A DNA stretch of 64,000 nucleotides from an uncultured Verrucomicrobiae bacterium (GTDB taxonomy: Bacteria > Verrucomicrobiota > Verrucomicrobiia > Limisphaerales > Palsa-1400). Positions 1 to 64,000 of the stretch are shown in pieces (within the stretch, counting starts at the first letter, position 1; the number at the start of each line of letters is the position of its first letter). The notes beneath the pieces are model-generated. The model searched no databases. It worked only from the letters and a program-made list of their open reading frames with translations, and was not told the DNA's origin. The stretch lies in NCBI GenBank assembly GCA_963764165.1, contig CAVXRD010000002.1:2176001-2240000 (forward strand), written 5' to 3'. The position numbers and the translations under genes are program-made.

Positions 1-2361
1 CTGTCCAATCCCTTGATTCAAATCTACGATAGCACTGGAACAAACCAGATCTGGAATTCCTATGGTGGCCCATCTGGGGATTATTTCCTGACTACCAGCA
101 GCGGCATCACACAAGGCCTCATTGATAGCTCCGTCTCGGCAGATCAAGAGTTCGTCGTTGGCCTGACCATCGACAATTGGCTGGTTATATGCCCGCTGAC
201 CAACGGCATTCCGAATGTGCAAAACCTTTACCTGAGCACGCCGACCTCCTACACGGGGAATGGCCGGGGAGTCGCTTTTGATGCCGCTGACAACATTTAC
301 CTGAGCAGTTCCGGCCTTGGCTTGGTTCAATCCTGGTCGCTAGGCCTGACGGCGACGGCTGTTACGACCGGCACCACCAATGGTTCAACGGGATTCCAGT
401 TCATCCCGGTGAACGCTTCCGTAAACGTTGGCTTGACCAACCAAATCGCTTATCAGGCAAATAACTCCTATGTGCTTGCAAACGGAGGGACGACCGCGGT
501 TGAACCCACGGCGTTCACCCTCAATCTGGCCAGCGTGCAGACTGCCCCAATTCCGGTAAGCTTCACACTGACGGGCACGGCGACCAATGGTGTCAATTAT
601 ACCGCCAGCACGAATGGTGTTAACCTGCCGGCTGCCTCCTCCTATACGGTTGTTTTCCCTCCTGGCGTGACAAATGAGACAGTGCTGATAACGCCGACAG
701 CGAACCCGGTTTCTGGCCCGACCTTGTCGGTTATTTTGACACTTAAGGGCGGTCCCGCCTATTCGGTGATTGCCCCCTTTACGGAAACGGCTTATATCGC
801 CAGTTCAGGGCCTCAAGTTCTGGTTCTCGGCGCCACCAGCGACCCATCCATGTATCGTGCCAATGCCAATGACTTCGCCATCTTCAAGATGACGCGTTAC
901 GGCGACACCAATGCGTCCTCATATTCAATTCCTCCGGCGGCGTTTACCCTTGGGGGAGCGGCCGTCTTCGGGACTGATTACACCGCTGGCCCTCAGCCAG
1001 TCAATTTCGCCACGGCTCCTACGGCAGGATCCGGCTCCGCTGTCACCGTAAATACCGGCGATCTGAGCGAATCGGTCGAAGTAGGTTTGCCTCAGCTCCA
1101 TTCAGCCTACACCGGCAATTTGCCAATCCTGGTCACGGGCAGCGGCGGCACAAGCCCTGAAGGAACTCCCTTCACATTCTTAACTAATACGACATCATTG
1201 GTGCTGCTGGATAACCTGTATCCGCCGGAGGCGATTCTCTGGTCTGATCCGCTGACCAACGCCGCAGACAGCACGAACTGGACGCTGGCCTTCGAAAACA
1301 CCAATACATTTCCCATCGTTTACACAAACTATCCGAACTTCACTGCCTCCAATCCGGATTCGAGCACGAACGATGATTTCGATGTCGAATTTGGATACGA
1401 CGTCTCCGCGGATGGCGTTACACCCTCGCTGACGATGCAATCCAATGGCTGGACCACCGCCCTCAAGATGACCGTGAACAAGCTCTCCGGCTTCATCCCG
1501 GGTTCGCCCTCCGGCGCATCAGGCGGCGTCAACGTCTATCCTAATGGAAAGAAGTTCGGCGGCAACTATGCGGTGCGCTTCAGCATGAACCTGGTTGAAG
1601 GCACCGCTAGCACCACTGAATTCAACATGTTCGGCATCAATCATTACGGCACAAATGCAAACTGGTTCTCAGGTGACTACGCCTACGGCCATGGGACGAC
1701 CAACAACGACGGTCTGTTCTTCTGGATCGACGCGGATACCGATGGGGCCGGAAACATTGCCGGCACTGCGGCTCTTTCGGGCCAGCCACTGCCGAACACA
1801 GGATGGGCGACCATCGCTTCGGCTTCATTACTATCGTATTCGAATATCTTCAAGAGCCCGGTTGTTTACAATGCGAGTCCCGCTGGCGCTCCTTCGGATC
1901 TGACCGGTGGGGGGATTTCAACTTGGGCGGATGTTGAAATCAAGCAGTACAACAAGGTGGTGACGATGTCGATCAACAAGACGGTCATCTTCACCTACAC
2001 CAATACGACCATCTTCACCAACGGCGAACCGATGCTGGGTTATGATGATCCGTTCGCGTCGGTCGGCGCGGATCCAGGCGCGGCAGCATATTATTCGAAC
2101 CTTCGCGTCGTTTCTCTGTCGGTGCCGACCATCATCAGTTCCGCCTTGTCGGGCGGCAACTTGATCATCCAGTTCACCAGCCCGGATGCGGAGGCCATTC
2201 CGAGCTCGTTCACGGTCGGAAGCACCACCAATCTCGCGACCGCATACAAAGCAACGGCTTCGACGATCACCCAATCGGGCGACATATTCACCGCCGTCGT
2301 GCCGTATTCATCGACTGGGTCGAAGTACTTTGCGATCTCGCAGTCTAACGATACGAACTAG
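1..2361 (+). CDS. Large secreted/surface protein, 5'-truncated by window edge (Calx-beta-like and lectin-like beta domains, C-terminal putative sorting domain)
   Basis: Frame open from base 1. Ser/Thr/Gly/Asn-rich. 'VSFTLTGTATNGVNY' and 'LGGAAVFGTDY' resemble Calx-beta motifs. C-terminus 'STTNLAT...SKYFAISQ'. Confidence 0.75.
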   Translation: MSNPLIQIYDSTGTNQIWNSYGGPSGDYFLTTSSGITQGLIDSSVSADQEFVVGLTIDNWLVICPLTNGIPNVQNLYLSTPTSYTGNGRGVAFDAADNIYLSSSGLGLVQSWSLGLTATAVTTGTTNGSTGFQFIPVNASVNVGLTNQIAYQANNSYVLANGGTTAVEPTAFTLNLASVQTAPIPVSFTLTGTATNGVNYTASTNGVNLPAASSYTVVFPPGVTNETVLITPTANPVSGPTLSVILTLKGGPAYSVIAPFTETAYIASSGPQVLVLGATSDPSMYRANANDFAIFKMTRYGDTNASSYSIPPAAFTLGGAAVFGTDYTAGPQPVNFATAPTAGSGSAVTVNTGDLSESVEVGLPQLHSAYTGNLPILVTGSGGTSPEGTPFTFLTNTTSLVLLDNLYPPEAILWSDPLTNAADSTNWTLAFENTNTFPIVYTNYPNFTASNPDSSTNDDFDVEFGYDVSADGVTPSLTMQSNGWTTALKMTVNKLSGFIPGSPSGASGGVNVYPNGKKFGGNYAVRFSMNLVEGTASTTEFNMFGINHYGTNANWFSGDYAYGHGTTNNDGLFFWIDADTDGAGNIAGTAALSGQPLPNTGWATIASASLLSYSNIFKSPVVYNASPAGAPSDLTGGGISTWADVEIKQYNKVVTMSINKTVIFTYTNTTIFTNGEPMLGYDDPFASVGADPGAAAYYSNLRVVSLSVPTIISSALSGGNLIIQFTSPDAEAIPSSFTVGSTTNLATAYKATASTITQSGDIFTAVVPYSSTGSKYFAISQSNDTN

Positions 2362-21305: not shown

Positions 21306-24300
21306 TCAAGGTTTTCCTGGCAGGATCACCGTGACGCGTCCGACATATTTCGCAAGCAGCGGACCCCCGCGGTTCTGATCATCACCCGGATTTGTCGCAA
21401 TTGGAGCGGCATTTGCCTCCGCTTTCTGCGTATTGCCCGCTTGGGCGGATGCTGTCTGGCTGCTCGCGGTGGCGGTCGCCGTGGCAGGCAGGGCGGACTG
21501 CGCTCCGCCGCCGGACACGTTTTGCGCGAGGGCAACGCCGGTAAACGCGCCGCCGGCCACGTTGACGTTGCCAACGGCAATAATAGTCCCGCTGATCGAA
21601 CCGCCGCTGGTGACAAGCCCGACGGTGCCCCCGGCCACATCCGTCACGTCAATCGTGTTCCCGTAAATGACGGAATTTCCGGTGGAGATGAAAAGCCCAT
21701 TTACCTTGCCAGTCGCCTTGGCAACCGTATTGATGGAAATGACTCCCGAGTCGCCCGCGTCAATGTTTCCATTGTAAAGGACCTGGCCGTCCGGCCCAAA
21801 GGTTCCCGCCGACAACGTAACGGTCGGCGCGAGCGAGGTGTTGCCGTTCTCCGGCTGCTGCGTGATGCCCCCCACGCTGGCTTCAATATTTCCACGCGGC
21901 GTGAGGACCGTGATGTTGCCAGGCGCAAGGCTCGACGGTGAATCAGGCAGTGTCGTGGCCAGAATTCCGCTCCCGGCGATCGGCTGCTGCGGCGTGGTCA
22001 CTGTGGTGCCGTTGACATTCACTTCATTCACCAGGATTTCCTGCAAATTCCCGTTGCCGGCATTGACGTTGCCGGTGAGCGATTCCACAAAAACATTGCC
22101 GCCGTCGAATGTCGCGATGCGCGATCCGGCGATGTTGATGTTGCCGTCGGCGATGACCGTCACGTCGCTGTCCCCGGAAGTCCAGATGCCGTGCGGAACG
22201 TAGGGGGATTGAATCGGGAGATTCGCCAGGCCGGCATTAATGACGCCACCGACGTCTATATTAATCGCGCCGCCGTACCACGAGCTAATCTCTGAGGCGA
22301 ACATGTCAAGGTCGCCCGCGAGCTTGATGTTGATGGACGCCCCCGTGGATGCAATTTTTGCCAGCGCGTTATTAACGGCTGGGCCAACGGAGCTGATGCC
22401 TTGGGCCGCAACACCGAGATTCATCGACTGAGCGGTGATGCTTAATGCGCCCGGGCCGCCGATGACAATTCCCTGCGCGGCATTGGCGAGGCTGACAGAA
22501 TTCTGGCTCTGCGCATACAACGCCTGAATGGCCGAAATCAAGGCGGGCGAATTGGCGAAGGTCGCGGTGGTCGTCACGTAATCGCCGGAAGCGTTCAGTA
22601 TCGGCTGGCCGCCGGCGGTGTATGTCTTTTCCTTGAGCGTGCCGAGCAGGAGCGCTTCGACTGCCGAGCTCATAATCCCGTCGTAGCCCAGTTGATGGGT
22701 GTTCGGCAAATAGAACAGGCTCAAGCTCGGAAAAAGCTGTCCGCCATTCGGGGAACTTGGGCCGGAGCCGGGGACGACCGCATTCTGCAGGAGCTGCAAA
22801 ACGCTCGTCAGCGCCCCCGGATACAGCGGAGGCGGGGCATATAGCGACGTCGACAAAGTGACGAGCGCATAGGTGTTTTGATCAAAAATCTGCCCGGCCA
22901 CGTGAAAGAACGTCACGTCGCCGCTGTGCAAATTCTGGCCGCTGAAGCTCAAGTTGTTCATGCTGCCGCCGACGGTGACCTGGGTTTCCTTGGGTGAAAT
23001 GATGGTCACGTCGTCAAGATCTCCAGCTATGTTGAAAACAACCGGCTGGGAATTGTGGATTTGAATCGGAGTCGCGCCGTGGTTGTTCGCGAAATCAGTC
23101 TGGCCCTGCACCCAGCGGGTGGCGCTGCTATCGGACATGGCGAGCGTGAAGCCATTGCCCTCGAAACTCCCGGGCGGCGGCGAACCGGCTGCCGCGACCG
23201 TGCCAGCCGGGACAGTTGTATTGACAGTCAAATTGCCGTGGGCGGACGGGAAAAGCGTCAGACTGTTGCCGAGCGAAATGCCGCCTGCGCCCGCGTCAAT
23301 GGTCAGTGTCGGCGGATAAATAATGGGGACTAGCGCCGAAGAATCGCGCGGAACATCAGCGCCGACCAAATTCACGGCGCTGCCCGCGTCCAAGGTGACT
23401 GATGCGTAAGGGCTGTAATTGAAGATATTGTTTTGCGACGCGGCCGATCCAATGCCGCTGGCGTTCAACGCGCCGTTCGGATTTCGCACCTCCTGCAAAT
23501 TGATGCTGCCATTGGGCGCATTGACGACCCAGCTTCCCGTGGCCAGGCTCAAGGCCAGCAGCGAGCTGATGCTGGTGGACGAACCGGCGCTCCCGGTCAG
23601 CGCCGTAATCGTGCTCGGCACGACGACTCCGTTCTCCGTGCTGTTCGCCGCCACATAATGGCCGTAAACGCTTCCGCCAGCCGTGACCGTTACGACTCCC
23701 GGCTGCGTGCCGAACGCGCCCGAGCCTGCGTCAGTCGGGCTGGTGCTGGACCCGGTTGGAAGATAGCTGGTGACGTTTCCGCCCGCGGTAATGTTGACGT
23801 TGCCGCCTGCCGCCGTGCTGATGCCGCCCAGCAGCGACGAGACGCCACCCAAAAGGAAGGTGTAACCGTTTTGGTTCTGGCCCGCGTTCACGCTTCCGGT
23901 CACCGCATCCACGCTGACGTTTCCTCCGTTGAAGGTTGCGATTGCGCCGGTGCCTACGGTCACGGAATTTGCGGCCACAACGTTGATGGCCCCGTTTTGC
24001 GACTGCAACGTTCCACTGCCACTCAAGGTTACCGAGCCGGTGCCGGAAGCATTGACAGCGTTTTGGCTGGCAAACGTCGCGCCAGCCACCACATCCAGCG
24101 ACCAATCCTGTCCAGCCGTGATGCCTCCGCTCATGGTGACGTTGCCGGCTGCCTGCATGGTCAAGCTGGCGGGCGTGGTGCTGTCGGAAAGATTCCAGCC
24201 GGAGAAGCCGCCGAGGGTGATGTTCCCGCCCATCGCCTGCATGAGGATGTTGCCGCCCGCGGATGAGGAAAGACTTCCTGTCCCAATCGAAATCCCATTT

Positions 24301-25742
24301 CCGGCGATCAAGTTGATGCCGCCATTCTCCGACTGAACGCCTGCGCTGCCGGACATCGTGATATTGCCCGTGCCCGCGGTCACGCCCGTGGGCGTGTTGA
24401 AATTGGCGCCGGCGATCAGATTCAAGCTCCAGTTTTGCCCCAGGTTCAAGCGGTCACCGCTGTTGAACGTGATGTTGTTTCCGGCCTGCAGCGTAAGCGT
24501 CGTCGCGCTCGCGCTGTCGGGCAGAGTCCAGGTCGAGGCAAGCGTGATATTTCCCGAGGCTTGGAGAAGGATTTGCGAGAACGAATCCAGCGAATTGGGA
24601 TTCAAGGTCAAAGTCGAGGGCGACGAGCCTTCCGTCACGGTCCCAGAAGTGGCTGTTGAACCGGAAGTGCTAAGAGTGATGTTCACTGGGTCAATTGTCA
24701 GCCTGCCATCCGTCCAGCCCGCCTCGGCGCGCCCGTCGATTTGGGAATTGATCGCGCCGAGCTGCGACGCGGAAACTTCCACCTTGCCGCCGTTGCCACC
24801 CTGCGCCCCTCCGGCCACGCTGATGGATGAGTTGGCGGTATCCGAAAATGTCCCGCCGGATTTGATCGTGACTTGTCCGCCGGAACTCGTTCCCTGGGAG
24901 TCGCCCTGGGCGGAAATCGTCGATCCGTCTGTCAAGTTAACAGCCTGGCTGGCGACGATCTCGATGACGCCGTCTTTCTGCTGGACCGAGTTAGCCTGGA
25001 TGAATCCGCCTTGGTTCACGACCTGCGCGTTCAGCGCGATGGTGCCTGCATCGGCGATGAGCTTGCCGGTATTATCCACCGATCCTTCCGGCAGCGTCAC
25101 TTGAGCGCTGAAGCCGCGCCCATCGGCCCGGGAAGAAATTAGGACATCTTCGCCAGCATAGAGGCCAATTTTCCCTCCGGGCGCGGTGATGGTGCCATTG
25201 TTTTGGATGTCGCGGCTGATAAGAAACACGGAACCGTTTGGCCCGGCATTGATCTCGCCGTAATTGATGATGCTCGCTGTGGGAGGAGGCGCGGAAAAGT
25301 CCCACGAGCCGCCGCCGAACACGTTGAGCGGAACGGTGGGCGCGGTTGTCATGATCAGCCCAGCCGCGTTGATCACCGCATTGCCGCCCACGTAAAAGCC
25401 CGATTGATTCTGGAGAATGATGTAGCCGTTCGCGTCCAGATGCCCCAAAATTTGGGTGGGGTTCGGATCTGTAATATGGTTCCAAACCACCGAGGTCGAA
25501 GTGGGTTCGATAAACACGGTTGTTTGGTTCGCGCCGATATTGAAACTCGACCAGTTGATGACCGTGTTATTGCCCGTGTGGATCGTCGTTTGCGAGCCCG
25601 TTGTCGTGACGGTCGCGGAGCCTTGGGTGACAACCGGATGCGTCGGGTTGGCGAACACCAGGGCCGGTGCAGCCACGGCAGCCACCATCAGAAGGCGGCG
25701 GCCCCCCATTTTATTGAACGACCGATTTGAAAAATTTTGCAT
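21306..25742 (-). CDS. Filamentous-haemagglutinin-like TpsA exoprotein with DUF3739-like C-terminus (~1478 aa)
   Basis: Signal peptide; TPS domain (INWSSFNIG, ILGHLDANG, NQSG); G/N-rich beta-helix; C-terminal GGNVFVES..GNVNAGNG / GSGI..T / GNITVLTPRG / IDAGDSGV. Confidence 0.88.
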   Translation of the reverse strand: MQNFSNRSFNKMGGRRLLMVAAVAAPALVFANPTHPVVTQGSATVTTTGSQTTIHTGNNTVINWSSFNIGANQTTVFIEPTSTSVVWNHITDPNPTQILGHLDANGYIILQNQSGFYVGGNAVINAAGLIMTTAPTVPLNVFGGGSWDFSAPPPTASIINYGEINAGPNGSVFLISRDIQNNGTITAPGGKIGLYAGEDVLISSRADGRGFSAQVTLPEGSVDNTGKLIADAGTIALNAQVVNQGGFIQANSVQQKDGVIEIVASQAVNLTDGSTISAQGDSQGTSSGGQVTIKSGGTFSDTANSSISVAGGAQGGNGGKVEVSASQLGAINSQIDGRAEAGWTDGRLTIDPVNITLSTSGSTATSGTVTEGSSPSTLTLNPNSLDSFSQILLQASGNITLASTWTLPDSASATTLTLQAGNNITFNSGDRLNLGQNWSLNLIAGANFNTPTGVTAGTGNITMSGSAGVQSENGGINLIAGNGISIGTGSLSSSAGGNILMQAMGGNITLGGFSGWNLSDSTTPASLTMQAAGNVTMSGGITAGQDWSLDVVAGATFASQNAVNASGTGSVTLSGSGTLQSQNGAINVVAANSVTVGTGAIATFNGGNVSVDAVTGSVNAGQNQNGYTFLLGGVSSLLGGISTAAGGNVNITAGGNVTSYLPTGSSTSPTDAGSGAFGTQPGVVTVTAGGSVYGHYVAANSTENGVVVPSTITALTGSAGSSTSISSLLALSLATGSWVVNAPNGSINLQEVRNPNGALNASGIGSAASQNNIFNYSPYASVTLDAGSAVNLVGADVPRDSSALVPIIYPPTLTIDAGAGGISLGNSLTLFPSAHGNLTVNTTVPAGTVAAAGSPPPGSFEGNGFTLAMSDSSATRWVQGQTDFANNHGATPIQIHNSQPVVFNIAGDLDDVTIISPKETQVTVGGSMNNLSFSGQNLHSGDVTFFHVAGQIFDQNTYALVTLSTSLYAPPPLYPGALTSVLQLLQNAVVPGSGPSSPNGGQLFPSLSLFYLPNTHQLGYDGIMSSAVEALLLGTLKEKTYTAGGQPILNASGDYVTTTATFANSPALISAIQALYAQSQNSVSLANAAQGIVIGGPGALSITAQSMNLGVAAQGISSVGPAVNNALAKIASTGASINIKLAGDLDMFASEISSWYGGAINIDVGGVINAGLANLPIQSPYVPHGIWTSGDSDVTVIADGNINIAGSRIATFDGGNVFVESLTGNVNAGNGNLQEILVNEVNVNGTTVTTPQQPIAGSGILATTLPDSPSSLAPGNITVLTPRGNIEASVGGITQQPENGNTSLAPTVTLSAGTFGPDGQVLYNGNIDAGDSGVISINTVAKATGKVNGLFISTGNSVIYGNTIDVTDVAGGTVGLVTSGGSISGTIIAVGNVNVAGGAFTGVALAQNVSGGGAQSALPATATATASSQTASAQAGNTQKAEANAAPIATNPGDDQNRGGPLLAKYVGRVTVILPGKP

Positions 25743-26090: not shown

Positions 26091-27989
26091 TCAGAATTGG
26101 GCTGTCAACGAAAACGCTATTCGCACCTGATACGCTTCCGTGTATGGCGTGCTCAAGAACGGCCACGCAAAGGAGAGCATCCCGCTGAAGTGATTCCCCA
26201 ACGACGCGGCGCCGGCGAATCCCGCACCCCACAGTGGGATCGCGGATTGGCGGCTGCCGGGATCGAGGAGATAGGTGTCTGCGTAGTCCATGAAGAATGA
26301 TGAACGCACCACCAAAGGCCGCTTCGTCCCCCCGCCCACATATCCAATTCGATAGGGCGGCAGTTTTAATTCCGACGTCGCCCGCCAGCCTGTATCGCCA
26401 AACACTTCGCCTTCGCGATAGCCACGCACACCGGCTATGCCGCCCCCGCCGAATTCCTCGTTGCTTATCAACGGCTCGCTTGCCCATTGCCCGTCCAGGC
26501 GCAGCGCCAGTTTCCATTCATGCGGCAGTGGCTGATCGCGGCTGAGGTAGCCCGTCACGACATGCCAGAAACCGCTTGATTGCGTTGAGCCGGTAATCTC
26601 CTCCAGATTACTCCGGCTGCTGGACATCCAGATATTTGGGCTGTAGCTCAATCCCGCGCCCGAAAGGCCCGCGGGATCCGGACGGGTTCCGTCCCACCGA
26701 AACGTGAGCGGCAGGTAACTGATGCCGTGGCGGGATGCAGGAACAGGCGATGGGATCGTGGATGTCCGGTTGGTGGGCGTGTTATTTTCAGTTATCAGAT
26801 ACTCAGTGATAATCGTGTCATTGGTCGCGAATGCGACTTGCTTGAAGTATTTGAAGTCGAATCCCGCCTGCGCATGGCTGTGGATCCCAAAAAACTCCTG
26901 CAATGGCTTCGTATAACGCATGCCAATGGCGTCATTGTAGGTCAAATCCTGCTGGATAAGCTGGCGGTTGATGCTGCTGGTTCCATTGGACGAACCGCTC
27001 CCGCCAGTGGCGATATTCATGTAGGGGCCGTAGGTCAGGCCGGAATCAATCGTCGAGCCGCTGGCGTAAAAGTTCAATTCTGACGCGCCCGTCGGCCCGG
27101 GAAGGACGAATTTCCGCGTGGCTTCGTTGTAGCCGAAGTCGCTCGCGCTTCTGATCGAATCTTCCGCCACCGAATCGACCTGCGACAGCGGCATGCAATA
27201 GAAGAAACTGTAGTTGGCCACCTGGGGCTGGTCGTAGGGATTCCAACTGCCGCCCTGTTTGAAATCCTGCTCGGAAAAAGTGTATTGCAAGCCAATGGAA
27301 TGATCCAATTGCCAAAGATTGTCATAGGCGGCGGACGCGGCGAGACGCATATCAGGCGTGCCCGGCGAGCTCTGGTTGTTGGCCTCAAGTTTCCCGTGGA
27401 GAGGCAATTGATCCTTCACCCGCAAAACAAGCGACGTGGTGTCCGGGTCTGGACCGGGGTGGATTTCCGGATAGATCTGGCGATCCTTGTCCTGGTTGGC
27501 CATGTCCAAAACCGGCTGCATGAGCTTGCTGTTCAAATACATGTTTGTCGTCAAGCCGGGAAGCGCGCGCATCACATTATTGGAACTAAAGAAGCGATTG
27601 CCCGACACCTTGATTTCGGCGAGCTTTCCCTCAAACACCCGCAGCCGGAACACGCCGTTGGTCAGCTTCTGCTGCGGAACGGTCACACTGATGGTGTCGT
27701 AACCGCGATCGTGGTATTCCAATTGCAATTCTTTCACAGCGGCGGCCACTTCGACAAACGTGATGTTCGTTCCAATGTGCTTGGAGGTGATTTTGCTCAC
27801 CGCGGTTTGCGGCAGCAGGGTGTTTCCCAATACTTCGTACTTATCCACCGCAAAATGCATTGGGGGCGGCGCGTTGGTGTCGGCCGCCCGCGCTGTCATA
27901 CAAACGAACGACGCGGTTGCGGCCAGCGCCATCAAGCGCCGCAGCAAGACAAGACACCGGCCCGGTTGGAGGATGTTCGGGGGAAGCAT
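26091..27989 (-). CDS. ShlB/FhaC/HecB-family TpsB outer-membrane transporter
   Basis: POTRA (YEVLGNTLL, YHDRGY, VPQQKL..G...RVFEG); VRGY motif; C-terminal F. Confidence 0.9.
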   Translation of the reverse strand: MLPPNILQPGRCLVLLRRLMALAATASFVCMTARAADTNAPPPMHFAVDKYEVLGNTLLPQTAVSKITSKHIGTNITFVEVAAAVKELQLEYHDRGYDTISVTVPQQKLTNGVFRLRVFEGKLAEIKVSGNRFFSSNNVMRALPGLTTNMYLNSKLMQPVLDMANQDKDRQIYPEIHPGPDPDTTSLVLRVKDQLPLHGKLEANNQSSPGTPDMRLAASAAYDNLWQLDHSIGLQYTFSEQDFKQGGSWNPYDQPQVANYSFFYCMPLSQVDSVAEDSIRSASDFGYNEATRKFVLPGPTGASELNFYASGSTIDSGLTYGPYMNIATGGSGSSNGTSSINRQLIQQDLTYNDAIGMRYTKPLQEFFGIHSHAQAGFDFKYFKQVAFATNDTIITEYLITENNTPTNRTSTIPSPVPASRHGISYLPLTFRWDGTRPDPAGLSGAGLSYSPNIWMSSSRSNLEEITGSTQSSGFWHVVTGYLSRDQPLPHEWKLALRLDGQWASEPLISNEEFGGGGIAGVRGYREGEVFGDTGWRATSELKLPPYRIGYVGGGTKRPLVVRSSFFMDYADTYLLDPGSRQSAIPLWGAGFAGAASLGNHFSGMLSFAWPFLSTPYTEAYQVRIAFSLTAQF

Positions 27990-28005: not shown

Positions 28006-28845
28006 TCATGCGCGAACGGCTCCGCCAGCAAGCCGCTGCCGGCGCCATTGCCCGGGGCTGACGCCGAAATGGCGCTTGAACAATTCGCTAAAAACGCTGC
28101 TGGATTGGTAGCCGCTCTCGAGCGCGATCTCCACCACTTTGGCGTCTGAGTTGGCCAGCAATTCGCAGGCCCGCGCAAGGCGCAGTTCGATCTGCTTCTC
28201 CCGGAACGAGGTCCCGAGCTCCGTGCGGAACAGACGGTTCAAATGGCGCGGGCTGCACGAAATCATGGGCGCCAATTGAGACAATGACAACTCGACAAAT
28301 TCGGAGGCCGCCATGCCGTTCATGATTTTGCGAAATCGCTCGCGCCCATCTTTCCAGGGCGTTTGCGCCGGCAATTCCAATTCTCCCTGCCACTCGAAGG
28401 CGCCGGTGAAAAGCTGCAGCAGGCGCAGGCGCTGCGCGGAATCTGGAGCGGCGGAACCCGCTTGAAGTTTTGCGCACCCGGCCGCCAGCAGACTCTCCGG
28501 GGAATGAACCCGCGCGGCGTGGGATTTGTGGCGGGCGGCCTGCTTGAGAAAATGCTGCTCCGACAGGCTGAGCAGGCCGGACAGCTTTTCCGTGTCAATA
28601 CAATAATGTGTGATTTCAACTTCGCTAAGCTGGCTGGCCCGCCATGTGCCGCGAACCTCCGCCGAGGCGACCACGGCCGAACCCGGCTCGATCTCCCGCA
28701 CTTCATTTTGATCGTGCCAGTAGCTGAAGCCATTTTCGATGAATGCGACGCACCAACCCCGGAAAGAGGGCCTCCATTCCCCGCCCTTTGGAAGCCGGAT
28801 TTTGTTCAGCACCAGGTGCGGCTCGAATTGCGGTCGTGATCTCAT
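28006..28845 (-). CDS. AraC-family transcriptional regulator
   Basis: SPRHLNRLFR...RLARACELL...IALESGY...FSELFKRHFGVSPGQWR. Start may be TTG 28929. Confidence 0.9.
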   Translation of the reverse strand: MRSRPQFEPHLVLNKIRLPKGGEWRPSFRGWCVAFIENGFSYWHDQNEVREIEPGSAVVASAEVRGTWRASQLSEVEITHYCIDTEKLSGLLSLSEQHFLKQAARHKSHAARVHSPESLLAAGCAKLQAGSAAPDSAQRLRLLQLFTGAFEWQGELELPAQTPWKDGRERFRKIMNGMAASEFVELSLSQLAPMISCSPRHLNRLFRTELGTSFREKQIELRLARACELLANSDAKVVEIALESGYQSSSVFSELFKRHFGVSPGQWRRQRLAGGAVRA

Positions 28846-28936
28846 GCGGCGCAGTTTCACAGAGGCAAATGGCGATTTGATTGCGGAATTGTTAAAATCG
28901 TGGAACGAAGTATTCCCATTGTTTTGCAATCAAGCA

Positions 28937-29359
28937 CTAGTTTGCGCTTTGTGTCGCCAATCCAATCTTGGTGATTTCCAGTTGCTGCAATGCGTCCAGC
29001 ACTTTGATCATGGCCTGGTATTCCACGTTGTCAGAACCTTTGACGACGATCTTTGGATCCGGGTCATCGGCCTTGATGGCGCGCAGCTTTTCCTTTAGTT
29101 GACTGTCTGGAACGACCACATCGTTGAGCGTAATTTGCCCCTTGTCGTCGACCGCGATGCGATTGATTCTTGGCTGCGGCGCGTTGGGGTTGGCGGGCGG
29201 CGGCTTGCCGGACGGCAGCGCCATTTCCAGGCTGTTGACCATCTGCGGCGTGGTGATGATGAAAATGACCAGCAGCACGAACACCAAATCCAGCAGCGGC
29301 GTGATGTTCAATTCATTCAACGTGCTGTGGCCGCGTTTGGATGTTTTTTTCAAGCTCAT
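28937..29359 (-). CDS. exbD: ExbD/TolR biopolymer transport protein
   Basis: ELNITPLLDLVFVLLVIFIITTP. Confidence 0.9.
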   Translation of the reverse strand: MSLKKTSKRGHSTLNELNITPLLDLVFVLLVIFIITTPQMVNSLEMALPSGKPPPANPNAPQPRINRIAVDDKGQITLNDVVVPDSQLKEKLRAIKADDPDPKIVVKGSDNVEYQAMIKVLDALQQLEITKIGLATQSAN

Positions 29360-30048: not shown

Positions 30049-30067
30049 TTTCTCGGAAAGCGATCAG

Positions 30068-30481
30068 TTACTTTGCATCCGCCGCTTCCGTGGCGAGGTC
30101 GACCTTGGGGACGTTGGCCTGCTGGCAGGCGTCAAGCACAGCGCGAATCTGGCTGTATTTCGTTTTGCCGTCGCCGCGCACGATCACGCTTAAATCGGGA
30201 TCATCAATGCGCAATTCGACCAGCTTTTCCTGCAAGGAGGTGGCCGTCACCGCCGCCTTGTTGAGCCACAGTTGTCCGTTCGCCTGCACCGTGATGTAAT
30301 TGGCTTTGCGCGGCGGATCTTTCGCGTGCTTGGAAGCGTTGGGCAGATTGAGATCCAAATCGTTCACAATCGGAGTGGTGGTGATGATGAAAATCACCAG
30401 CAGCACAAACGCCAAATCCAGCAGCGGGGTGATGTTCAGCTCCGTCAGCGACTCATGACTTGAATGCGAACATTTCTTCAT
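30068..30481 (-). CDS. exbD: ExbD/TolR biopolymer transport protein
   Basis: ELNITPLLDLAFVLLVIFIITTTP; VRGD. Confidence 0.9.
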   Translation of the reverse strand: MKKCSHSSHESLTELNITPLLDLAFVLLVIFIITTTPIVNDLDLNLPNASKHAKDPPRKANYITVQANGQLWLNKAAVTATSLQEKLVELRIDDPDLSVIVRGDGKTKYSQIRAVLDACQQANVPKVDLATEAADAK

Positions 30482-50437: not shown

Positions 50438-52705
50438 ATGACGCGCGGACCTGCCAATAGAAACTGGGCGGAGCCGCGGCGATTTGCTTTGCTGCTGGCG
50501 GCGCTGGTTTTCATTCCGTTTTGGGACGTCCTGCTGGGATTTGACACTTGGGTTATTCGCGATTTCGCCTTGTTTTCCATGCCGACCGCGAACTTCCAAA
50601 AGGAATGTTTCTGGCGCGGGGAATGGCCGTTGTGGGATCCCTACAGCTTGTGCGGGGTGCCGTTTCTGGCGCAGTTCAACACGCTGTGCGTATATCCCGG
50701 GGCGCTGCTTTACCTGTTGCTGCCGCTGACGTGGGCTTTGCCGGCCTTTTGCTTGCTCCATGTTTTTTGGGGCGGATTGGGAATGTATTTACTGGCCCGG
50801 CGATGGACGGGTTCGCAGGCGGGAGCGGCGTTGGCGGGCGTGATGTTTTCCTTTAACGGCCTTTCAATGAGCATTTTGATGTGGCCCAGCCATATCGCGA
50901 CGTATTCCTGGATTCCGTGGGTCATCTTTTTGGCTCAACGCGGACGCCAGGAGGGCGGACGGCCGCTCGTTCTGGCGGCGCTGGCCGGAGGGATGCAAGT
51001 GCTGGGGGGCGGGCCGGAGACGATTGCCTTCACATGGGTGATGGCGGGGATCGGCGTTGTGCTGGATTGCTGCCAAGCCCGGGGCATTCTTTGGCGGTCG
51101 ATTTGGCGGTTCGGGCTGATGGGCTGGCTGGCGCTGATGCTGGCGGCGGCGCAATTGCTCCCCACCATCGATTTCGCGATGCACTCGCACCGCGACGCTC
51201 ACTTTGGCCGATCCGATTGGTCCATGCCGCTGTGGGGCTGGGCGAATTTACTGGTTCCGATGTTCCAAATGATTCCGATGCAATCCGTCGTCGCGCAGCC
51301 GGACCAGTATTGGACTTCGTCATATTACCTGGGAATCGGCGGGATTTTCCTCATTGGGCTGGCGCTCTGGCAGGGTCGAAAGAATGGCCTGGTGCGGATT
51401 TTGTCCGGGATGTTTTTCGGCAGCTTGATCCTGGCCCTTGGCTACAACGGGTATGTTTTCCGCTGGCTCCAAGCGGCGCTTCCGATCCTTGGGATGTTTC
51501 AATTTCCTATCAAATTTGTGCTGCTCACATCCACGGTTGCGCCGTTGCTGGCGGCGTTCGGGCTGGCCTTTTGCGAGCGGGATGCGGTTCCGAAAACGTG
51601 GCGGGGGCGTTGGATCTGGGCGGCGGTGCTGTTGTCATTGATCGCGTTTATCATTTGGGCGGCGTGGCGCTGGCAGATGGATTATGCCAACTGGCGGCAA
51701 TCGCTGGCCTGCGGGCTCGAGCGCGCCGGATTTCTCATCGCCGGCGTGGCTGTTCTGTATTTGTTTGTCCGGCGGGTTGAATGGCGCTGGTGGAGCATCG
51801 TGCCCTTGGTGGCGCTGGCGTGGTGCGATGTCCTGACGCACGAGCCGTGGCAAAATCCCACGGTTGACCCATCGCTCTACCAAGTGGGATTCGGCGTGCT
51901 GGACGCCAAATTCAATATTGCCCCGGAACTCTCGCAATCGCGACTGATGATGTCGCCGTTTTCCGCCGACCATCTCTATCACCAGCCGGATCCGGACGTC
52001 AAAACGAATTTCCTGCTGGATCGCGCGGTCTTTTTGGCCGATTGCAACCTGCTGGACGACATTCCGAAGGTGGACGGGTTTTTCTCATTGAACATCCGCG
52101 AAAGCGACAAAATCCTGTGGCTGCTGGAAACACGCACTGGAAGAAAACTGGACAACCTGGAGGATTTGTTGTCCGTTTCGCAGACAATCGCGCCCGGGAA
52201 GCTGTTCGATTGGATGCTGCGCACAAATTATATCCCGATAGCCAGCGTTGGCAAAAGTCCCGTCTTTGCCGGCCCAACCAACACCTTTGATGCCATTGAC
52301 AAGGACACGGCTGATTTTCATTCCGTGATTTACCTGCCGCTGGAAGCAAAGGCGGTGGTCAAGGCGGTCGCGGAGCCTCGCGCGCGGATCGTCTCCAAGG
52401 ATTTCAAGACATCCATGGAAACCATGGAAATCGACACGCCAGCCCCGGCCATCGCAGGACTCACCGGGTGTTTTTATCATAATTGGGAAGCGGCGGTGGA
52501 CGGAAAGCCCGTTCCGATCTGGCGGGCAAATTACGCCTTTCAAGCTGTGGAAGTCCCCGCCGGGCGGCATCGTCTGGTATTGCAATACAAAGATAAGGCG
52601 TTCCGGGCCGGATTGGTCGTTTCCGCACTTGCGCTGATGGCTTGCGTTGCCGGTTGGCTGGCGGCCAACCGAGGCAGGAACGCCTCGCCGAGGCCTCCGG
52701 GTTGA
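50438..52705 (+). CDS. YfhO-family polytopic membrane protein (GT-C-like glycosyltransferase)
   Basis: GEWPLWDPY..CG.PFLA, many TM segments, C-terminal W.A.VDGKPVPIWRANYAFQAVEVPAGRH. Confidence 0.8.
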   Translation: MTRGPANRNWAEPRRFALLLAALVFIPFWDVLLGFDTWVIRDFALFSMPTANFQKECFWRGEWPLWDPYSLCGVPFLAQFNTLCVYPGALLYLLLPLTWALPAFCLLHVFWGGLGMYLLARRWTGSQAGAALAGVMFSFNGLSMSILMWPSHIATYSWIPWVIFLAQRGRQEGGRPLVLAALAGGMQVLGGGPETIAFTWVMAGIGVVLDCCQARGILWRSIWRFGLMGWLALMLAAAQLLPTIDFAMHSHRDAHFGRSDWSMPLWGWANLLVPMFQMIPMQSVVAQPDQYWTSSYYLGIGGIFLIGLALWQGRKNGLVRILSGMFFGSLILALGYNGYVFRWLQAALPILGMFQFPIKFVLLTSTVAPLLAAFGLAFCERDAVPKTWRGRWIWAAVLLSLIAFIIWAAWRWQMDYANWRQSLACGLERAGFLIAGVAVLYLFVRRVEWRWWSIVPLVALAWCDVLTHEPWQNPTVDPSLYQVGFGVLDAKFNIAPELSQSRLMMSPFSADHLYHQPDPDVKTNFLLDRAVFLADCNLLDDIPKVDGFFSLNIRESDKILWLLETRTGRKLDNLEDLLSVSQTIAPGKLFDWMLRTNYIPIASVGKSPVFAGPTNTFDAIDKDTADFHSVIYLPLEAKAVVKAVAEPRARIVSKDFKTSMETMEIDTPAPAIAGLTGCFYHNWEAAVDGKPVPIWRANYAFQAVEVPAGRHRLVLQYKDKAFRAGLVVSALALMACVAGWLAANRGRNASPRPPG

Positions 52706-60455: not shown

Positions 60456-61056
60456 GGGATTGGGTTCGCTCGATCCGCTGAGCCACGACGCGCTCCAATT
60501 GCGCGGCGTGAGCCTCCAGCGTGGTGTCGGTCCACACCGCAAAATCGGACCGCAACAGCTTCCGATCGATTGGCCATTGTGCCGCCACCCGCTGGCGGAT
60601 TTGGCTGTCTTCCCACCCCCGCAACCGCAGCCTGCTGGCCTGCGATGCTTCGCCGCACGCGATGCAAATAATCGCGTCAAAACGCGAGTCCGCGCCCGTC
60701 TCAAACAACAACGGAATCAAGACAGCGCCGCAGTTTTTCCCGGCCACCCGCCAGCCTTCTACGATGGCCTCCCACGCCGCGCGAATCTTCGGATGCAAGA
60801 TCGCCTCCAAAGCGACTCGGGATTGGGGATTCGCGAAGACTTCTTTCGCCAGGGCTGCGCGATTTATTTTGCCGTCCTGCAAAAAAACAGCCGAGCCAAA
60901 TCGCCGCCGAATTTCTTCGGTGGCAGACTGGCCCGGCTCGGTTAATTGTCTGGCGATGGCATCCGTGTCGATCACGGATACACCCCGTTTTTGCAGCAGC
61001 TCGCCGGCGGTGGACTTGCCCATGCCGACCCCGCCGGTGATGCCGAACAACGTCAC
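60421..61056 (-). CDS. coaE: Dephospho-CoA kinase
   Basis: [37 protein letters not shown] overlap with the upstream stop; 3' end overlaps rpsR by 35 bp. Confidence 0.92.
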
Positions 61057-64000
61057 TGCGGCAGACGAGTGGCTCGATAGAACTTCAATGAGTTCGTCAT
61101 GGGGACCACCTGCGTGAATGATCCATTGGTTAACGATGCCTCGTTCGTGTAGAATGCAGTCCACTGCAGCAAGTTGGTGGATGATTCCAGCGCGTAGTTC
61201 TGGCCTTCTTGGCCGCGCAATGTCAATTGGAGAGTGCCGTTCGACAAGTTCGTCGCCAAAAGCTGGGCGCTCGGGCTTGTCAAAACCGTTGTCGAATTGA
61301 CCGCAGTCGCATCCGCCAGATACAGATCGGCGCTGGCTGTGCTGACGGTTGCCGCATTTTCTATCGTTCCGGGCGTGTTCGCGATGACGCGAATCGTCGC
61401 GGTGGCAATGGCGCCGTTGCTGATGCTGCCGAGATATGCCACAACAGTGCCATTCAAGTTCGAAACTGATCCTTGCGAGGCGCTGCCAGTGATGAATGTC
61501 AAGCTCGCTGGCAAGGCATCAGTGATGACAACGTTATTGGCCACGCTCGGTCCCTGATTGGAAACCGTGATTTGATAATTGAGATAATTGCCGCTATAGA
61601 CCGGATCCGGCGCGGCGATCATGCTTGCTTGCAGAAGCGCAGCGGGGTTGATGGTCTGGACGGTGGTCAAGCCCAAGCTCCATCCCTCAACAATCGCTCC
61701 GCCATTGCCTTGCGTATCGTCATAAACATAGAGCGACCAGAGGCCATTCGGACTGTATCCGTTGAACAGCGCCAAGGAAGTTCCATCCGTTGCCGCAGGC
61801 AGCCCTGGGAACAGGTCTACGGGCGCGTAATCGGTCGGAAGGTATGTGCCCGAGAGCAATTGCCCAACCGGCAGCGAAGCCGACGCAGCATCATCGAAGG
61901 TGAGGGTCAAATTCGTGGCGCCATAAGGACCCCCGGCGTGGCCCATCACGATGAGTTCTTGGCCGGACGGGCTGGCAAGCAGTGCGTTCACATCGTGCGG
62001 AAACGTATGCGCAAAACCCTTCAGCGTTACAGTCACTTTGCTAACCAAGCCAGACACATTGGTGACAAGGATGGCCGCAGGATACGGTGTGGCAGTCCCA
62101 AATTGCGGAATGATGATTTCACCGGAATTCGTAAACGAAGCGGTTGACGGCATCACGAACGCAAACGAAACCGTTCCGTAGGAATTAGAGCCGTCGTTAA
62201 GCATCAACGTGGCGGTCACGGTCGCGCCAGGCGCGCCATCCGCAACGAAGGTGAACGGCTCGGTGCCGATGCCTTGCGCGGGAATTGCGCCATAAACCTG
62301 GTTCGTCGTGATCGGCGCAATCGAATTTGACGCTAGAAGCGTCGCCATCAGATTCCGGGTTGCAACAAAACCAGAGTTGGTCAGTGTCAATGCAACAGTT
62401 ACCGGGACGTTCGAATTCACCGATCCATCGCCTTGGGACAATAACGTGGCGTCATAGGCTGAGATGACCGGGATCGCCGCGCTGGCCGTCACCACTGCCG
62501 CCGCCAGATTGTTGGATGGATTGATATCATCGGAACCAGAGATCACCGACCATGTGTTGCTGAAAGTTCCCACGTTGGTGGGAACGGCCACGATGGTAAC
62601 AGAGGCAAGGCCATTCGGAACGATTGTGCCCAGGTCACAGACAACAAATCCATTGCTGAAGCTGTTAGAGTTGACCTGCGAGGCAATTACATTGGTCAGG
62701 TTCACGCTCAAACCCGCCAATGAAAACTTGCCCACTGTGGCGACCGAGTTGCTCGGGCCCAAGTTTGTCACCGTCAGGGTATACGTGATGTTGCTGCCGA
62801 CAATGGCATTCGTTGGCGTCGCCGAGATGCCTGCGGCAAGATCCGCCAAGGGCATGCTCACCGCTGCCACGATCGAGGCGGAATTGTTGGCGAGATTGAA
62901 CGCGGCAAAGGCCACTCCTGCGTTGATGCTGTTGGTCAAGTAGCCCGCGCCAGCCGCAAGGTCAACGTTTGTAATCACCGCCCCCTGGCCGGCGCCCAGG
63001 ACACCGACGTGGTAAACGACTGTTTGGCCATTCTGAACGAAGCCGCCCAAATCGCCGGTCACAGACTCAAATGTCAAGGCGGTCGGCAGCGTGTTGGTTA
63101 TATATGCATCGACAGGCGTTATGCCCGCGTTGGTCACCGCCATGTAGTAGCTAATATAATCACCCACCACAAGCTGATTGGTTGATTGGGTGATTCCAGC
63201 CAGCAGGCTGTTGGTGGGGTTGACTGGCGTGATCGTCGTGATCGTCAACGACCACCCATTGCTAATGCCGCCAGAATCGCCCGGGGCATTATCCTGCCCG
63301 AAAAGCGACCAGGTTCCATTCGCATTCCCTCCGACAAAGTTCGTCAGGTTAGTGCCATAAGGAGCCGCACCCGCATTGACGAAGGCGTTGGTCGCATTGT
63401 AATCAGCCGGGGCATAGGTGCCGGATGTGAAGCTGCCGGAGCTTGGCAGCGCAATCGACGCCGTGGAATCAAACGTCACAGTCGTGTCGGTCATGAAGCT
63501 ATAACCCTCTGCCGCCGAATCCATCAAGACGGTGTTCGTCGAAGGTCCAGCAAGGAGCAACCCGATATCGTGCGGATAGGTGTGGCTCATGTTGGAGACG
63601 GTGACTGTCACTTTGGAAAGATACCCAGTGACGTTCGAGACAATGATGCTCGATGGGTACGGGCTGGCCGGGCCGGCATCAGGTTGCGGAACGAAATTGG
63701 TCGCCGGCAAGTAGATCGGATTCGTGTTATAGAATGTATGCACCTCCGGCAGATAGAAGGTAAACGCCGCTGTTCCCAGGCTCGTTGATCCGTCCTGAAG
63801 CGACAGCGTCGCCACCACGGTGCCTCCGTTCGTTCCGTTCGCAACGAAAGTGAAGTAGCCCGCGACTGGCGCTCCCCCGGGAACCAATGCGCCATAGGTC
63901 TGCGGATTGCCGCCGGGCAGCGTTACACCGCCTGTGGCTTGCAGCGTTGCCACAAGATTTGTCGTCGGAATGTTTCCAGCATTTTGCAGGTAGAAATTGA
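61053..64000 (-). CDS. Large secreted protein, 5'-truncated by window edge (two proprotein-convertase-P-like domains, DUF11-like repeats, C-terminal putative sorting domain)
   Basis: Duplicated 'PYP..I.V.NV.G..SKVTVT...HT.PHD...LL..PS' and 'NG.WSL'; ITYTLTVTNLGP / YQITVSNQGP DUF11 motifs; C-terminus SSTNLLQW...KFYR. Confidence 0.8.
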   Translation of the reverse strand, partial: NFYLQNAGNIPTTNLVATLQATGGVTLPGGNPQTYGALVPGGAPVAGYFTFVANGTNGGTVVATLSLQDGSTSLGTAAFTFYLPEVHTFYNTNPIYLPATNFVPQPDAGPASPYPSSIIVSNVTGYLSKVTVTVSNMSHTYPHDIGLLLAGPSTNTVLMDSAAEGYSFMTDTTVTFDSTASIALPSSGSFTSGTYAPADYNATNAFVNAGAAPYGTNLTNFVGGNANGTWSLFGQDNAPGDSGGISNGWSLTITTITPVNPTNSLLAGITQSTNQLVVGDYISYYMAVTNAGITPVDAYITNTLPTALTFESVTGDLGGFVQNGQTVVYHVGVLGAGQGAVITNVDLAAGAGYLTNSINAGVAFAAFNLANNSASIVAAVSMPLADLAAGISATPTNAIVGSNITYTLTVTNLGPSNSVATVGKFSLAGLSVNLTNVIASQVNSNSFSNGFVVCDLGTIVPNGLASVTIVAVPTNVGTFSNTWSVISGSDDINPSNNLAAAVVTASAAIPVISAYDATLLSQGDGSVNSNVPVTVALTLTNSGFVATRNLMATLLASNSIAPITTNQVYGAIPAQGIGTEPFTFVADGAPGATVTATLMLNDGSNSYGTVSFAFVMPSTASFTNSGEIIIPQFGTATPYPAAILVTNVSGLVSKVTVTLKGFAHTFPHDVNALLASPSGQELIVMGHAGGPYGATNLTLTFDDAASASLPVGQLLSGTYLPTDYAPVDLFPGLPAATDGTSLALFNGYSPNGLWSLYVYDDTQGNGGAIVEGWSLGLTTVQTINPAALLQASMIAAPDPVYSGNYLNYQITVSNQGPSVANNVVITDALPASLTFITGSASQGSVSNLNGTVVAYLGSISNGAIATATIRVIANTPGTIENAATVSTASADLYLADATAVNSTTVLTSPSAQLLATNLSNGTLQLTLRGQEGQNYALESSTNLLQWTAFYTNEASLTNGSFTQVVPMTNSLKFYRATRLPQ

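Follow-up and report, generated by a model that had tools for sequence, protein, structure and literature searches.

The window analysed here, a 64-kb stretch of a Limisphaerales genome (G000), carries a type Vb secretion pair, in which the gene for a passenger (PF05860) adjoins that for a POTRA and ShlB barrel protein (PF08479, PF03865), as well as a large exported protein at either edge and a membrane glycosyltransferase. The features to which the text refers, including one candidate enzyme encoded outside the window, are as follows.

1..2361, + strand: 3' part of the gene for a signal-peptide protein rich in Thr, Asn and Ser, a predicted heavy T-N carrier
21306..25709, − strand: TpsA, 1467 aa, with a TPS domain (PF05860)
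21390..21395, − strand: the sole T-N of TpsA (I-A-T-N-P), with Pro next, where selection on the motif is weakest
26091..27899, − strand: TpsB, 602 aa, with POTRA_2 (PF08479) and ShlB (PF03865)
28006..31368, − strand: genes for an AraC regulator, ExbD, a TonB C-terminal protein, ExbD and ExbB, lying upstream of, and co-oriented with, tpsB-tpsA (context)
50489..52705, + strand: YfhO-like GT-C membrane glycosyltransferase, a rival enzyme candidate
61053..63998, − strand: 3' part of the gene for a large exported protein with DUF11 and P-domain Pfam matches
G000:C4:588331-592245, outside the window: TMEM260-like GT-C enzyme, 1304 aa, assigned by PF11028

The window edges truncate both flanking proteins, the full gene calls of which are 1095 aa (1..2361) and 1970 aa (61053..63998). 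An earlier note on this DNA had counted Thr-Asn (TN) and Ser-Asn (SN) pairs by eye, and the recount bears its figures out closely. Within the window, the 1-2361 (+) protein, which gave no match in Pfam and NCBIfam searches, has 20 TN versus 8.1 expected (Poisson p 3e-4) and, with no enrichment of that pair, 6 SN versus 6.9 (about 20 and 5 by eye). The 61053-63998 (−) protein has 28 TN versus 10.3 (p 4e-6) and 16 SN versus 8.0 (p 0.008; about 27 and 16 by eye), and the structural DUF11 pattern [VI]-T-N-x-G accounts for only two of the 28. Over the TpsB open reading frame, 26091-28178 (−), there are 7 TN versus 2.4 and 4 SN versus 3.3 (about 6 and 4 by eye); the 602-aa gene call holds six of these TN, four within residues 1-120, which take in the N-tail and POTRA region, and two beyond, and the four SN. 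Mature TpsA (1448 aa; 147 Thr, 161 Ser, 124 Asn) has, as first noted, one TN and no SN, although the expectation is 26.3 rather than the roughly 20 then estimated. None of 5000 shuffles brought the TN+SN count below its minimum of 12 (p about 1e-10).

For the whole genome, genes and protein classes (signal-peptide, cytoplasmic and others) were assigned by heuristics, and paired numbers give observed/expected dipeptide counts. T-N is the most over-represented of the 400 dipeptides in the 694 predicted signal-peptide proteins (2690/1285), with ratios of 1.85-2.23 across all seven charge strata, and the motif is carried by 468 of the 694, about two-thirds. S-N overall stands at 0.92 there. The claim that [T/S]-N is enriched in exported proteins thus survives for T-N, and for S-N solely in the form S-N-x-[VIFLTP] (1316/926). 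Charge-rich cytoplasmic proteins, 1416 in number, are neutral (730/722). A first 'cytoplasmic' class had given 1.46, with low-charge members at 2.17 and 1.92 and charge-rich strata at 0.90-1.10; the low-charge members resemble exported proteins whose true starts were missed. The bias also follows topology within single proteins, being 49/19.8 outside the membrane versus 6/6.4 inside in 16 Ser/Thr kinases, and 16/5.9 outside versus 5/6.8 inside in nine histidine kinases, so that the cytoplasmic comparison first suggested comes out in favour of an extracytoplasmic signal. T-N is neutral in 17 strict Tat substrates (9/11.3), and seven flagellar axial proteins (19/27) were read as neutral as a class. 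In 18 beta-barrel proteins T-N is 14/3.8 in the N-tail and 10/34 in the body, where S-N is 9/41.

The residues around the pair refine the rule to [T>S]-N-X-Z, in which X is not Pro and Z is preferably Val, Ile, Phe, Leu, Thr or Pro. T-N-P is at expectation (158/147), compared with 2784/973 for T-N-x-[VIFLTP]. In 120 TpsA homologues, where T-N is 22/1091 and S-N 118/1289 (0.09), S-N-P is spared at many positions (52/67). The context rule is thus enzyme-like and visible in both directions, enrichment and purge. Neither N-x-T (1.10) nor N-x-S (1.00) departs far from expectation in signal-peptide proteins, D-T (0.80) and D-S (0.98) are unenriched, and Ser or Thr at +2 after Asn has no special preference. 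In an exposed-column test on T-N, an initial lean to Asn was gone once proper baselines were applied.

N-X-S/T is not purged from the window TpsA (32/25) or from the second TpsA of the genome (82/55), in which T-N is 0/56. Across 21 Limisphaerales TpsA proteins T-N is 30/816 (0.04) and S-N 94/469 (0.20), versus 190/250 (0.76) and 132/218 (0.60) in 16 from other Verrucomicrobiota, and 84/132 (0.64) and 77/108 (0.71) in eight from other phyla. The TpsA of genome G271 is purged (T-N 0/52) and its sensor proteins are enriched. There are exceptions: the TpsA proteins of trait-positive G110 (T-N 23/19) and G062 (20/26) are unpurged, and in G237, which belongs to the order, T-N is merely down to 0.46. 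The trait status of G237 is doubtful. Low T-N in G288, G237, G181 and G322 was not counted as loss of the trait because their automatic 'exported' class was mixed, containing TpsA/TpsB-like and non-exported ORFs. The presence of autotransporters was also tried as a correlate and had no discrimination (8 of 41 genomes).

Across Limisphaerales, then, T-N is about twice as frequent as chance in extracytoplasmic parts and nearly absent from TpsA. It could be argued that this is a structural, compositional or DNA-level artefact, arising from beta-strand ends, beta-helix incompatibility or codon-pair bias. TpsA beta-helices everywhere are mildly poor in T-N and S-N (0.6-0.76), and the effect differs by codon pair, with ACT-AAY under expectation. 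Six of the eight T-N codon pairs are nevertheless enriched, the reverse pair N-T (0.82) and T-D (0.90) are not, and the bias reverses across a membrane helix inside one gene. Moreover, fold alone is no explanation, because homologous folds elsewhere are unenriched: LamG domains have 162/79 in G000 versus 18/19 in trait-negative genomes, and DUF11-like proteins from other phyla have 24/38. An artefact is largely refuted by these homologue and topology controls and seems very improbable. The comparisons with TpsA and DUF11 homologues that the earlier note had proposed, like the one between compartments, agree with its central claim of a lineage-specific, acceptor-like signal, favoured by selection outside the cytoplasm and disfavoured in TpsA.

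At about even odds, T-N is the acceptor signal of a general periplasmic O-glycosylation system, probably served by the TMEM260-like GT-C enzyme. That enzyme would take a lipid-phosphate-linked sugar as donor and transfer the sugar to the hydroxyl of a Thr (Ser less well) right before Asn, on a still-unfolded Sec-exported chain. Surface and periplasmic proteins would acquire T-N sites because the glycan benefits them, for instance through stability or a surface coat. Chains that must be unfolded to pass through or insert into the outer membrane would shed sites because a glycan would impede passage or folding, most strongly in TpsA, for which a narrow TpsB pore is a plausible reason, and more mildly in beta-barrel bodies and PEP-CTERM proteins. 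Cytoplasmic, Tat and flagellar substrates would stay neutral, since they would not be exposed to the enzyme as unfolded periplasmic chains.

Four GT-C families were profiled against the trait, and the TMEM260-like family tracks it best. PF11028 was found in 14/14 Limisphaerales, 1/14 genomes from elsewhere in the class and 4/7 genomes from other classes, and among 14 named controls only in B. thetaiotaomicron; the 14/14 match amounts to about one event, since the order is one lineage. In a second LamG test none of nine enzyme-negative genomes was enriched (pooled 54/71). Of nine genomes from outside the order that have the enzyme, three show clear enrichment (G062 64/24.5, G083 20/10, G447 33/20.8); the others are G493 (8/15), G005 (0/3), G007 (13/15), G403 (10/8.5), G453 (15/11.5) and G023 (14/10.6). 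With several enzyme-positive genomes lacking the signal, the enzyme alone is insufficient for the trait. It matches human TMEM260 (9RQL) at E 3e-16, and the donor-binding residues D52, H67, R264 and Y267 of the human protein align with D80, H95, R367 and Y370. Across 32 homologues H95, R367 and Y370 do not vary and D80 is kept in at least 90%; the enzyme tree is a quick tree only. R355 (TM10) is not kept, aligning with Val in a low-scoring stretch, and in the human enzyme R355A does no more than lower activity to about 20%. An invariant G-G-T-D-P (D656) sits just past the aligned stretch, and a motif-based guess would equate D656 with D441, the catalytic base in the Rossmann-like domain of TMEM260.

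The same signal could instead be N-linked, as the earlier note had suggested, with a non-STT3 periplasmic GT-C glycosylating Asn and needing Thr or Ser at −1 and, preferably, a hydrophobic residue at +2. Pro after Asn relaxes enrichment and purge alike, as in N-X-S/T; the preference two places past Asn has a counterpart in OST's +2 pocket; and the Asn residues of beta-helix ladders may be very costly to modify, which would fit the extreme purge of TpsA. However, a profile search for STT3/PglB (PF02516) matched 0/14 in-order genomes and four archaeal controls, Ser or Thr at +2 is not favoured, and the best co-occurring family is characterised as an O-transferase only: to our knowledge, the sole characterised member of the TMEM260 family glycosylates Thr/Ser hydroxyls. 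N-glycosylation is thus unsupported so far, and we consider it unlikely. A broader form, in which a TMEM260-family GT-C modifies the Asn of an inverted T/S-N-X(not P)-hydrophobic motif in a proteome-wide, STT3/PglB-free periplasmic system of Limisphaerales and some other Verrucomicrobiota, under a constraint strong enough to have cleared entire secretion routes of the motif, is doubtful.

O-glycosylation at T/S-N might also be carried out by another GT-C, in which case the TMEM260 orthologue would be either its partner or uninvolved. The YfhO-like family, a member of which lies in the window, turned up in 12/14 Limisphaerales genomes and in 0/14 from the other orders of its class, and has weak matches to streptococcal PgfM1/PgfM2; a remote second PF11028 subfamily (G000:C2:413416) recurs across the order. 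Both are nearly co-distributed with the TMEM260-like enzyme. The YfhO-like family was, however, not found in trait-bearing G271, its matches in trait-positive G062 and G110 are only remote, and the remote PF11028 subfamily lacks the D-S-G-E motif. The window gene, which the earlier note mentioned while seeing no direct link, is a poorer fit (12/14 versus 14/14), and a different GT-C seems rather unlikely. TMTC-like proteins, scored by alignment query, were rejected as candidates: they occur in 7/14 other-order genomes, were not found in 3/14 in-order ones and are abundant in trait-negative genomes; the PF08409 (TMTC) profile is uninformative because it gave no match anywhere, controls included.

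Finally, the reader of T-N may be an enzyme that adds something other than a glycan, such as a phospho-form or a lipid, or else a periplasmic chaperone or lectin whose non-covalent binding would stall TpsA. Any periplasmic factor that reads unfolded chains would be consistent with all the sequence statistics, and out of the whole core genome the profiling covered four GT-C families. A hydroxyl residue, Thr over Ser and exclusion of Pro are nonetheless typical of a glycosyltransferase sequon, and inner-membrane sensor loops are enriched too, though not secretion substrates, which makes such a reader quite improbable.

O-glycosylation by the TMEM260-like enzyme has parallels in known systems. 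One is the general Bacteroidota system, which attaches sugar to Ser/Thr at D-(S/T)-X in proteins of the periplasm, membranes and cell surface that number in the hundreds (PMC10897501). Like it, the Limisphaerales signal is a short, phylum-type motif, with an excess (of motifs, not occupied sites) confined to extracytoplasmic parts, and B. thetaiotaomicron, of Bacteroidota, also has a PF11028 protein. The determinant, however, is Asn at +1 here and Asp at −1 there, and that glycosylation is known from mass spectrometry, whereas the present signal comes from sequence alone. Human TMEM260 (GT117; PDB 9RQL/9RQM/9RQN) shares the Pfam family, the four donor-site equivalents and a C-terminal TPR, and works on extended chains outside the cytoplasm, as proposed for the bacterial enzyme. 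It is reported to act on extended peptides, with Thr the usual acceptor and Ser an alternative (10.64898/2026.03.17.711096; 10.64898/2026.09.21.753134), and to add one mannose at a long IPT-domain sequon (PMC10214176; 10.64898/2026.03.17.711096). The bacterial protein differs in its large inserts and lost R355, and its proposed sequon is four residues long and proteome-wide. The long human sequon, unlike T-N, is a point against an O-linked TMEM260 reading, as is the resemblance of the no-Pro rule to N-glycosylation. With STT3/PglB/AglB the signal shares that rule, the preference for Thr and positive selection in secreted proteins, but it has the hydroxy residue at −1, where theirs lies at +2. 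Sequons are also reported to be selected against in apicomplexans (Cui 2009, Bushkin 2010, both cited in PMC12019905).

The acceptor rule, read straight from selection, is likely an undescribed sugar-attachment signal; it predicts that an abundant and little-studied order of bacteria has a general system of protein modification, and names a candidate enzyme. If true, it would give a bacterial TMEM260 relative its first substrate rule, none having been found by literature search, and would back the idea that in Bacteroidota and other phyla O-glycosylation at short motifs comes from this family. One modification would push secreted proteins in opposite ways by export route, making TpsB/BAM pore tolerance testable, and a compact sequon on unfolded chains could be of use in glycoengineering.

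In a sister PVC phylum, a short-motif O-linked glycan is described on anammox S-layer proteins, at the different motif G-T/S (10.1101/2020.12.03.409086). HMW1C/EtpC likewise tie glycosylation to two-partner secretion, but there TpsA is the target of a cytoplasmic N-glycosylation (PMC5422565), whereas here it avoids an extracytoplasmic motif. HMW1 is reported to pass TpsB bearing mono- and di-hexoses (PMC5422565), an observation that, with one unpurged in-order autotransporter passenger part (7/4.4), is set against the narrow-pore reading.

The dipeptide Thr-Asn (T-N) ranks first among 400 for over-representation in the 694 signal-peptide proteins of the source genome, G000 (2690/1285, 2.09-fold, z 39; paired numbers are observed/expected dipeptides and single ratios their quotient). 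The gene set comprises 5085 genes called with our own gene-calling model, and protein classes were assigned by heuristics. The excess is present in 7/7 charge strata (1.85-2.23), whereas charge-rich cytoplasmic proteins (n = 1416) stand at 730/722, a difference between compartments that the earlier note had anticipated. The unfiltered cytoplasmic class reaches 1.46 because its low-charge members resemble exported proteins with missed starts. Ser-Asn (S-N), which had been proposed as part of the exported enrichment, does not belong there overall (0.92 in signal-peptide proteins). Ratios in the same proteins are 0.82 for N-T, 0.90 for T-D, 0.80 for D-T, 0.98 for D-S, 1.10 for N-x-T and 1.00 for N-x-S. 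Six of the eight Thr-Asn codon pairs are enriched; both ACT pairs are not.

Dipeptide counts given by eye in the earlier note for the window proteins are accurate to within 1-2 on recount. In the protein at 1-2361, whose composition predicts 8.1 T-N and 6.9 S-N, there are 20 and 6; the protein at 61053-63998 has 28 T-N (10.3 expected) and 16 S-N (8.0), and the TpsB ORF (26091-28178, minus strand) has 7 (2.4) and 4 (3.3); the proteins at both window edges extend beyond it. In the DUF11 protein of the window, the structural pattern [VI]-T-N-x-G covers only 2/28 T-N.

The mature form of the window TpsA (gene at 21306-25709, minus strand) contains a single T-N, in I-A-T-N-P, and no S-N, as had been noted; the expectation is 26.3 rather than the roughly 20 then estimated, and the minimum in 5000 shuffles is 12. 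In the second TpsA of G000 (C2:2479059-2486261) the count is zero against an expectation of 56. TPS domains were found in 94/251 genomes of the order Limisphaerales. From 20 in-order and 20 other regions, 19 and 17 TpsA proteins, respectively, were recognised; the two from G000 were added to the former, and the protein of genome G083, itself a purged one (T-N 0/9, S-N 1/4), was for that reason left out of the latter. In-order TpsA (n = 21) have T-N at 30/816 (0.04) and S-N at 94/469 (0.20), compared with 190/250 (0.76) and 132/218 (0.60) in the others (n = 16), and these are the two most strongly depleted dipeptides between the pools. The purge is absent from eight TpsA of Pseudomonadota and Desulfotalea (T-N 84/132, S-N 77/108), a comparison the earlier note had proposed for unrelated phyla. 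The baseline deficit of the beta-helix is therefore mild, about 0.6-0.75, and the order shows a further 3- to 20-fold loss. The best 120 of 1203 window-TpsA homologues have T-N at 22/1091 and S-N at 118/1289, counts that overstate independence because homologues share ancestry. In a separate check, the TpsA of G007 is likewise empty (T-N 0/4.7, S-N 0/3.9). There are exceptions: the in-order TpsA of G237 is purged only to 0.46, the least in the order, those of G110 (T-N 23/19) and G062 (20/26) are unpurged despite enrichment in the other exported proteins of these genomes, and T-N stands at 7/4.4 in a portion of one autotransporter passenger from the order.

The T-N bias follows lineage rather than fold. 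Low-charge exported proteins of LamG regions have ratios of 1.74-3.30 in 8/9 in-order genomes with data and of 0.36-0.81 in seven genomes of the class's other orders. The LamG domain alone is at 162/79 in G000 (56 domains) versus 18/19 in trait-negative genomes (22 domains). Seven DUF11-like proteins of Actinomycetota, Cyanobacteriota and Bacillota (six records; 6/9 hits fetched) lack the enrichment (24/38), a further check suggested by the earlier note. Beyond the class, the T-N excess is unevenly distributed (G110 2.5, G062 2.1, G007 and G083 1.3, G079 0.87, G070 0.62). The ninth in-order genome, G179, has a ratio of 0.14 that comes from one giant LamG protein (L091, G179:C31:70000-86842; T-N 3/22, S-N 6/23). 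Its open frame spans 6814 aa with the start past the contig end and no TPS domain visible, and its export route may be one that purges the motif.

Within one gene, the bias switches across the membrane: T-N is at 49/19.8 on the outside and 6/6.4 on the inside of Ser/Thr kinases (n = 16), and at 16/5.9 versus 5/6.8 in histidine kinases (n = 9). Lipoproteins are enriched (214/110), as are 126 proteins with an F-Y-R-type C-terminal tail (2458/1126), and pilin-like proteins show a mild excess (64/46). At least 126 large low-charge G000 proteins carry the tail motif F/Y-F/Y-R-L/V, which resembles a C-terminal sorting domain, and are the main T-N carriers. No clear enrichment was found in Tat substrates (strict set, n = 17, 9/11.3; relaxed set, n = 23, 33/24.3) or flagellar axial proteins (n = 7, 19/27). 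In 18 hand-picked outer-membrane barrel proteins, the N-tail is enriched (T-N 14/3.8) and the body depleted (T-N 10/34, S-N 9/41). PEP-CTERM proteins are poor in T-N, at 1/12.8 in G000 (pattern set, n = 10, two members doubtful); T-N and S-N are at 12/35 and 17/35 in five in-order genomes (33 proteins) and at 35/63 and 54/54 in five others (31 proteins).

Context was counted in 865 exported proteins of G000. T-N-x-[VIFLTP] is at 2784/973, T-N-x-[AWYMS] at 1610/651, T-N-x-[KRGNDEQH] at 1243/855, T-N-P at 158/147 and S-N-x-[VIFLTP] at 1316/926. Before x-[VIFLTP], A-N, G-N, V-N and D-N range over 0.72-1.00, and in trait-negative genomes T and S give 0.81 and 0.97. The context rule of the purge mirrors that of the enrichment: among the best 120 of 1203 TpsA homologues, S-N-P escapes (52/67, scattered along the chain), T-N-P escapes partially (8/56, against 0.02 overall), and surviving sites favour G, N, D, K and R at Asn +2. 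We take [T>S]-N-X(not P)-Z as the working sequon, with Z preferably hydrophobic or beta-branched.

Selection on this short motif is real, strong, lineage-specific and two-directional. The explanation that fits best is a general, hitherto undescribed system of glycosylation in the periplasm, with the motif as its sequon. Something in the periplasm very likely reads the motif, and the modification is probably glycosylation. The closest systems are the Bacteroidota O-glycosylation motif D-(S/T)-X (PMC10897501), the anammox motif G-T/S (10.1101/2020.12.03.409086) and N-X-S/T. The literature searched, which included few subscription papers, yielded no report of a T-N motif or of glycosylated proteins in Verrucomicrobiota and no substrate assignment for a bacterial TMEM260 homologue. 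Such homologues are merely noted as distant in the available text of one paper (PMC10214176), and Verrucomicrobia go unmentioned in that of a review of bacterial O-glycosylation (PMC12645811).

No STT3 was found in G000 or in 13 further in-order genomes, and G000 encodes many other GT-C-like proteins. In a panel of 35 genomes (14 in-order, 14 other-order, 7 other-class), the TMEM260-like family PF11028 occurs in 14/14, 1/14 and 4/7, respectively, the window YfhO-like protein (50489-52705, plus strand) in 12/14, 0/14 and 3/7 (these remote), and a TMTC-like profile in 11/14, 7/14 and 4/7. Among 14 named controls, PF11028 occurs in Bacteroides thetaiotaomicron only. The TMEM260-like protein is present in 105/301 genomes of the phylum, with none in families f4 (21), f5 (26), f6 (23), f13 (47) and f20 (23). 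A second LamG test covered 18 genomes, 13 of them new: the nine enzyme-negative genomes are at 54/71 (0/9 enriched) and the nine enzyme-positive genomes outside the order at 177/119 (3/9 clearly enriched), with three same-class genomes with distant enzyme copies unenriched (10/8.5, 8/15, 0/3). Across these few independent contrasts, the enzyme looks necessary, but not sufficient, for the trait. The intact copy is:

G000 C4:588331-592245: TMEM260-like protein, 1304 aa, matching human TMEM260 (9RQL) at E 3e-16

Its D80, H95, R367 and Y370 align with D52, H67, R264 and Y267, which are essential in human TMEM260 (structure preprint, 10.64898/2026.03.17.711096); human R355 pairs with Val. Across 32 homologues there is no variation at H95, R367, Y370 or D656 (in G-G-T-D-P) and almost none at D80; D656 would, at a guess, be the catalytic base D441. 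The gene sits in what reads as a housekeeping setting: over 62 loci, with neighbour names assigned by reading sequences, the usual neighbours are sigma-factor-like (27) and rsmE-, dnaJ- and grpE-like (17-19).

Most likely, the TMEM260-like enzyme would be located in the inner membrane and would move a lipid-linked sugar onto the Thr/Ser preceding Asn, on Sec substrates before folding; extended peptides are substrates of human TMEM260 (10.64898/2026.03.17.711096). Transfer of this kind would leave Tat and flagellar substrates neutral and give a T-N excess in any periplasm-facing part. The sugar could instead sit on Asn, as the Pro rule resembles that of N-glycosylation, but the enzyme family favours O-linkage; we judge the chances evenly balanced that the linkage is to oxygen and made by the TMEM260 orthologue. 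TpsA is kept extended in the periplasm and threaded through its TpsB barrel (PMC5422565), so every site would be modified. Since HMW1 crosses its pore bearing mono- and di-hexoses (PMC5422565), the loss of sites from TpsA suggests that the glycan is bulkier than these or that it disturbs folding of the beta-helix.

G000 has two highly divergent TMEM260-like TPR proteins and a truncated copy (C2:413416-416343, C2:776801-779983, C1:270709-272064); the divergent pair, of a subfamily recurrent in the order, is without the D-S-G-E motif, and the truncated copy has Gln at the conserved Asp. The G237 orthologue (L114, G237:C319) has D-C-G-E in place of D-S-G-E, in the genome with the least-purged TpsA of the order. 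A 249-aa GT2 at G000:C1:1028520-1029269 (L409:8520-9269), with weak matches to the polyprenyl-phosphate sugar synthases AglJ and ArnC, is a possible donor synthase. Immediately after the second tpsA-tpsB pair (G000:C2:2479059-2498333) comes a type VI membrane-complex-like cluster made up of tssK, tssL, tssM, an unknown gene of 828 aa and tssA. In the window, tpsA is immediately followed on its own strand by a UreF-like gene (20473-21156), and four adjoining genes at 2668-6324 (three plus, one minus) have N-methyl pilin-type N-termini. A transposase-like gene of 486 aa occurs twice in the window, at 15697-17157 and 46098-47558, with an identical N-terminus in both; a third copy lies at G000:C2:420108.
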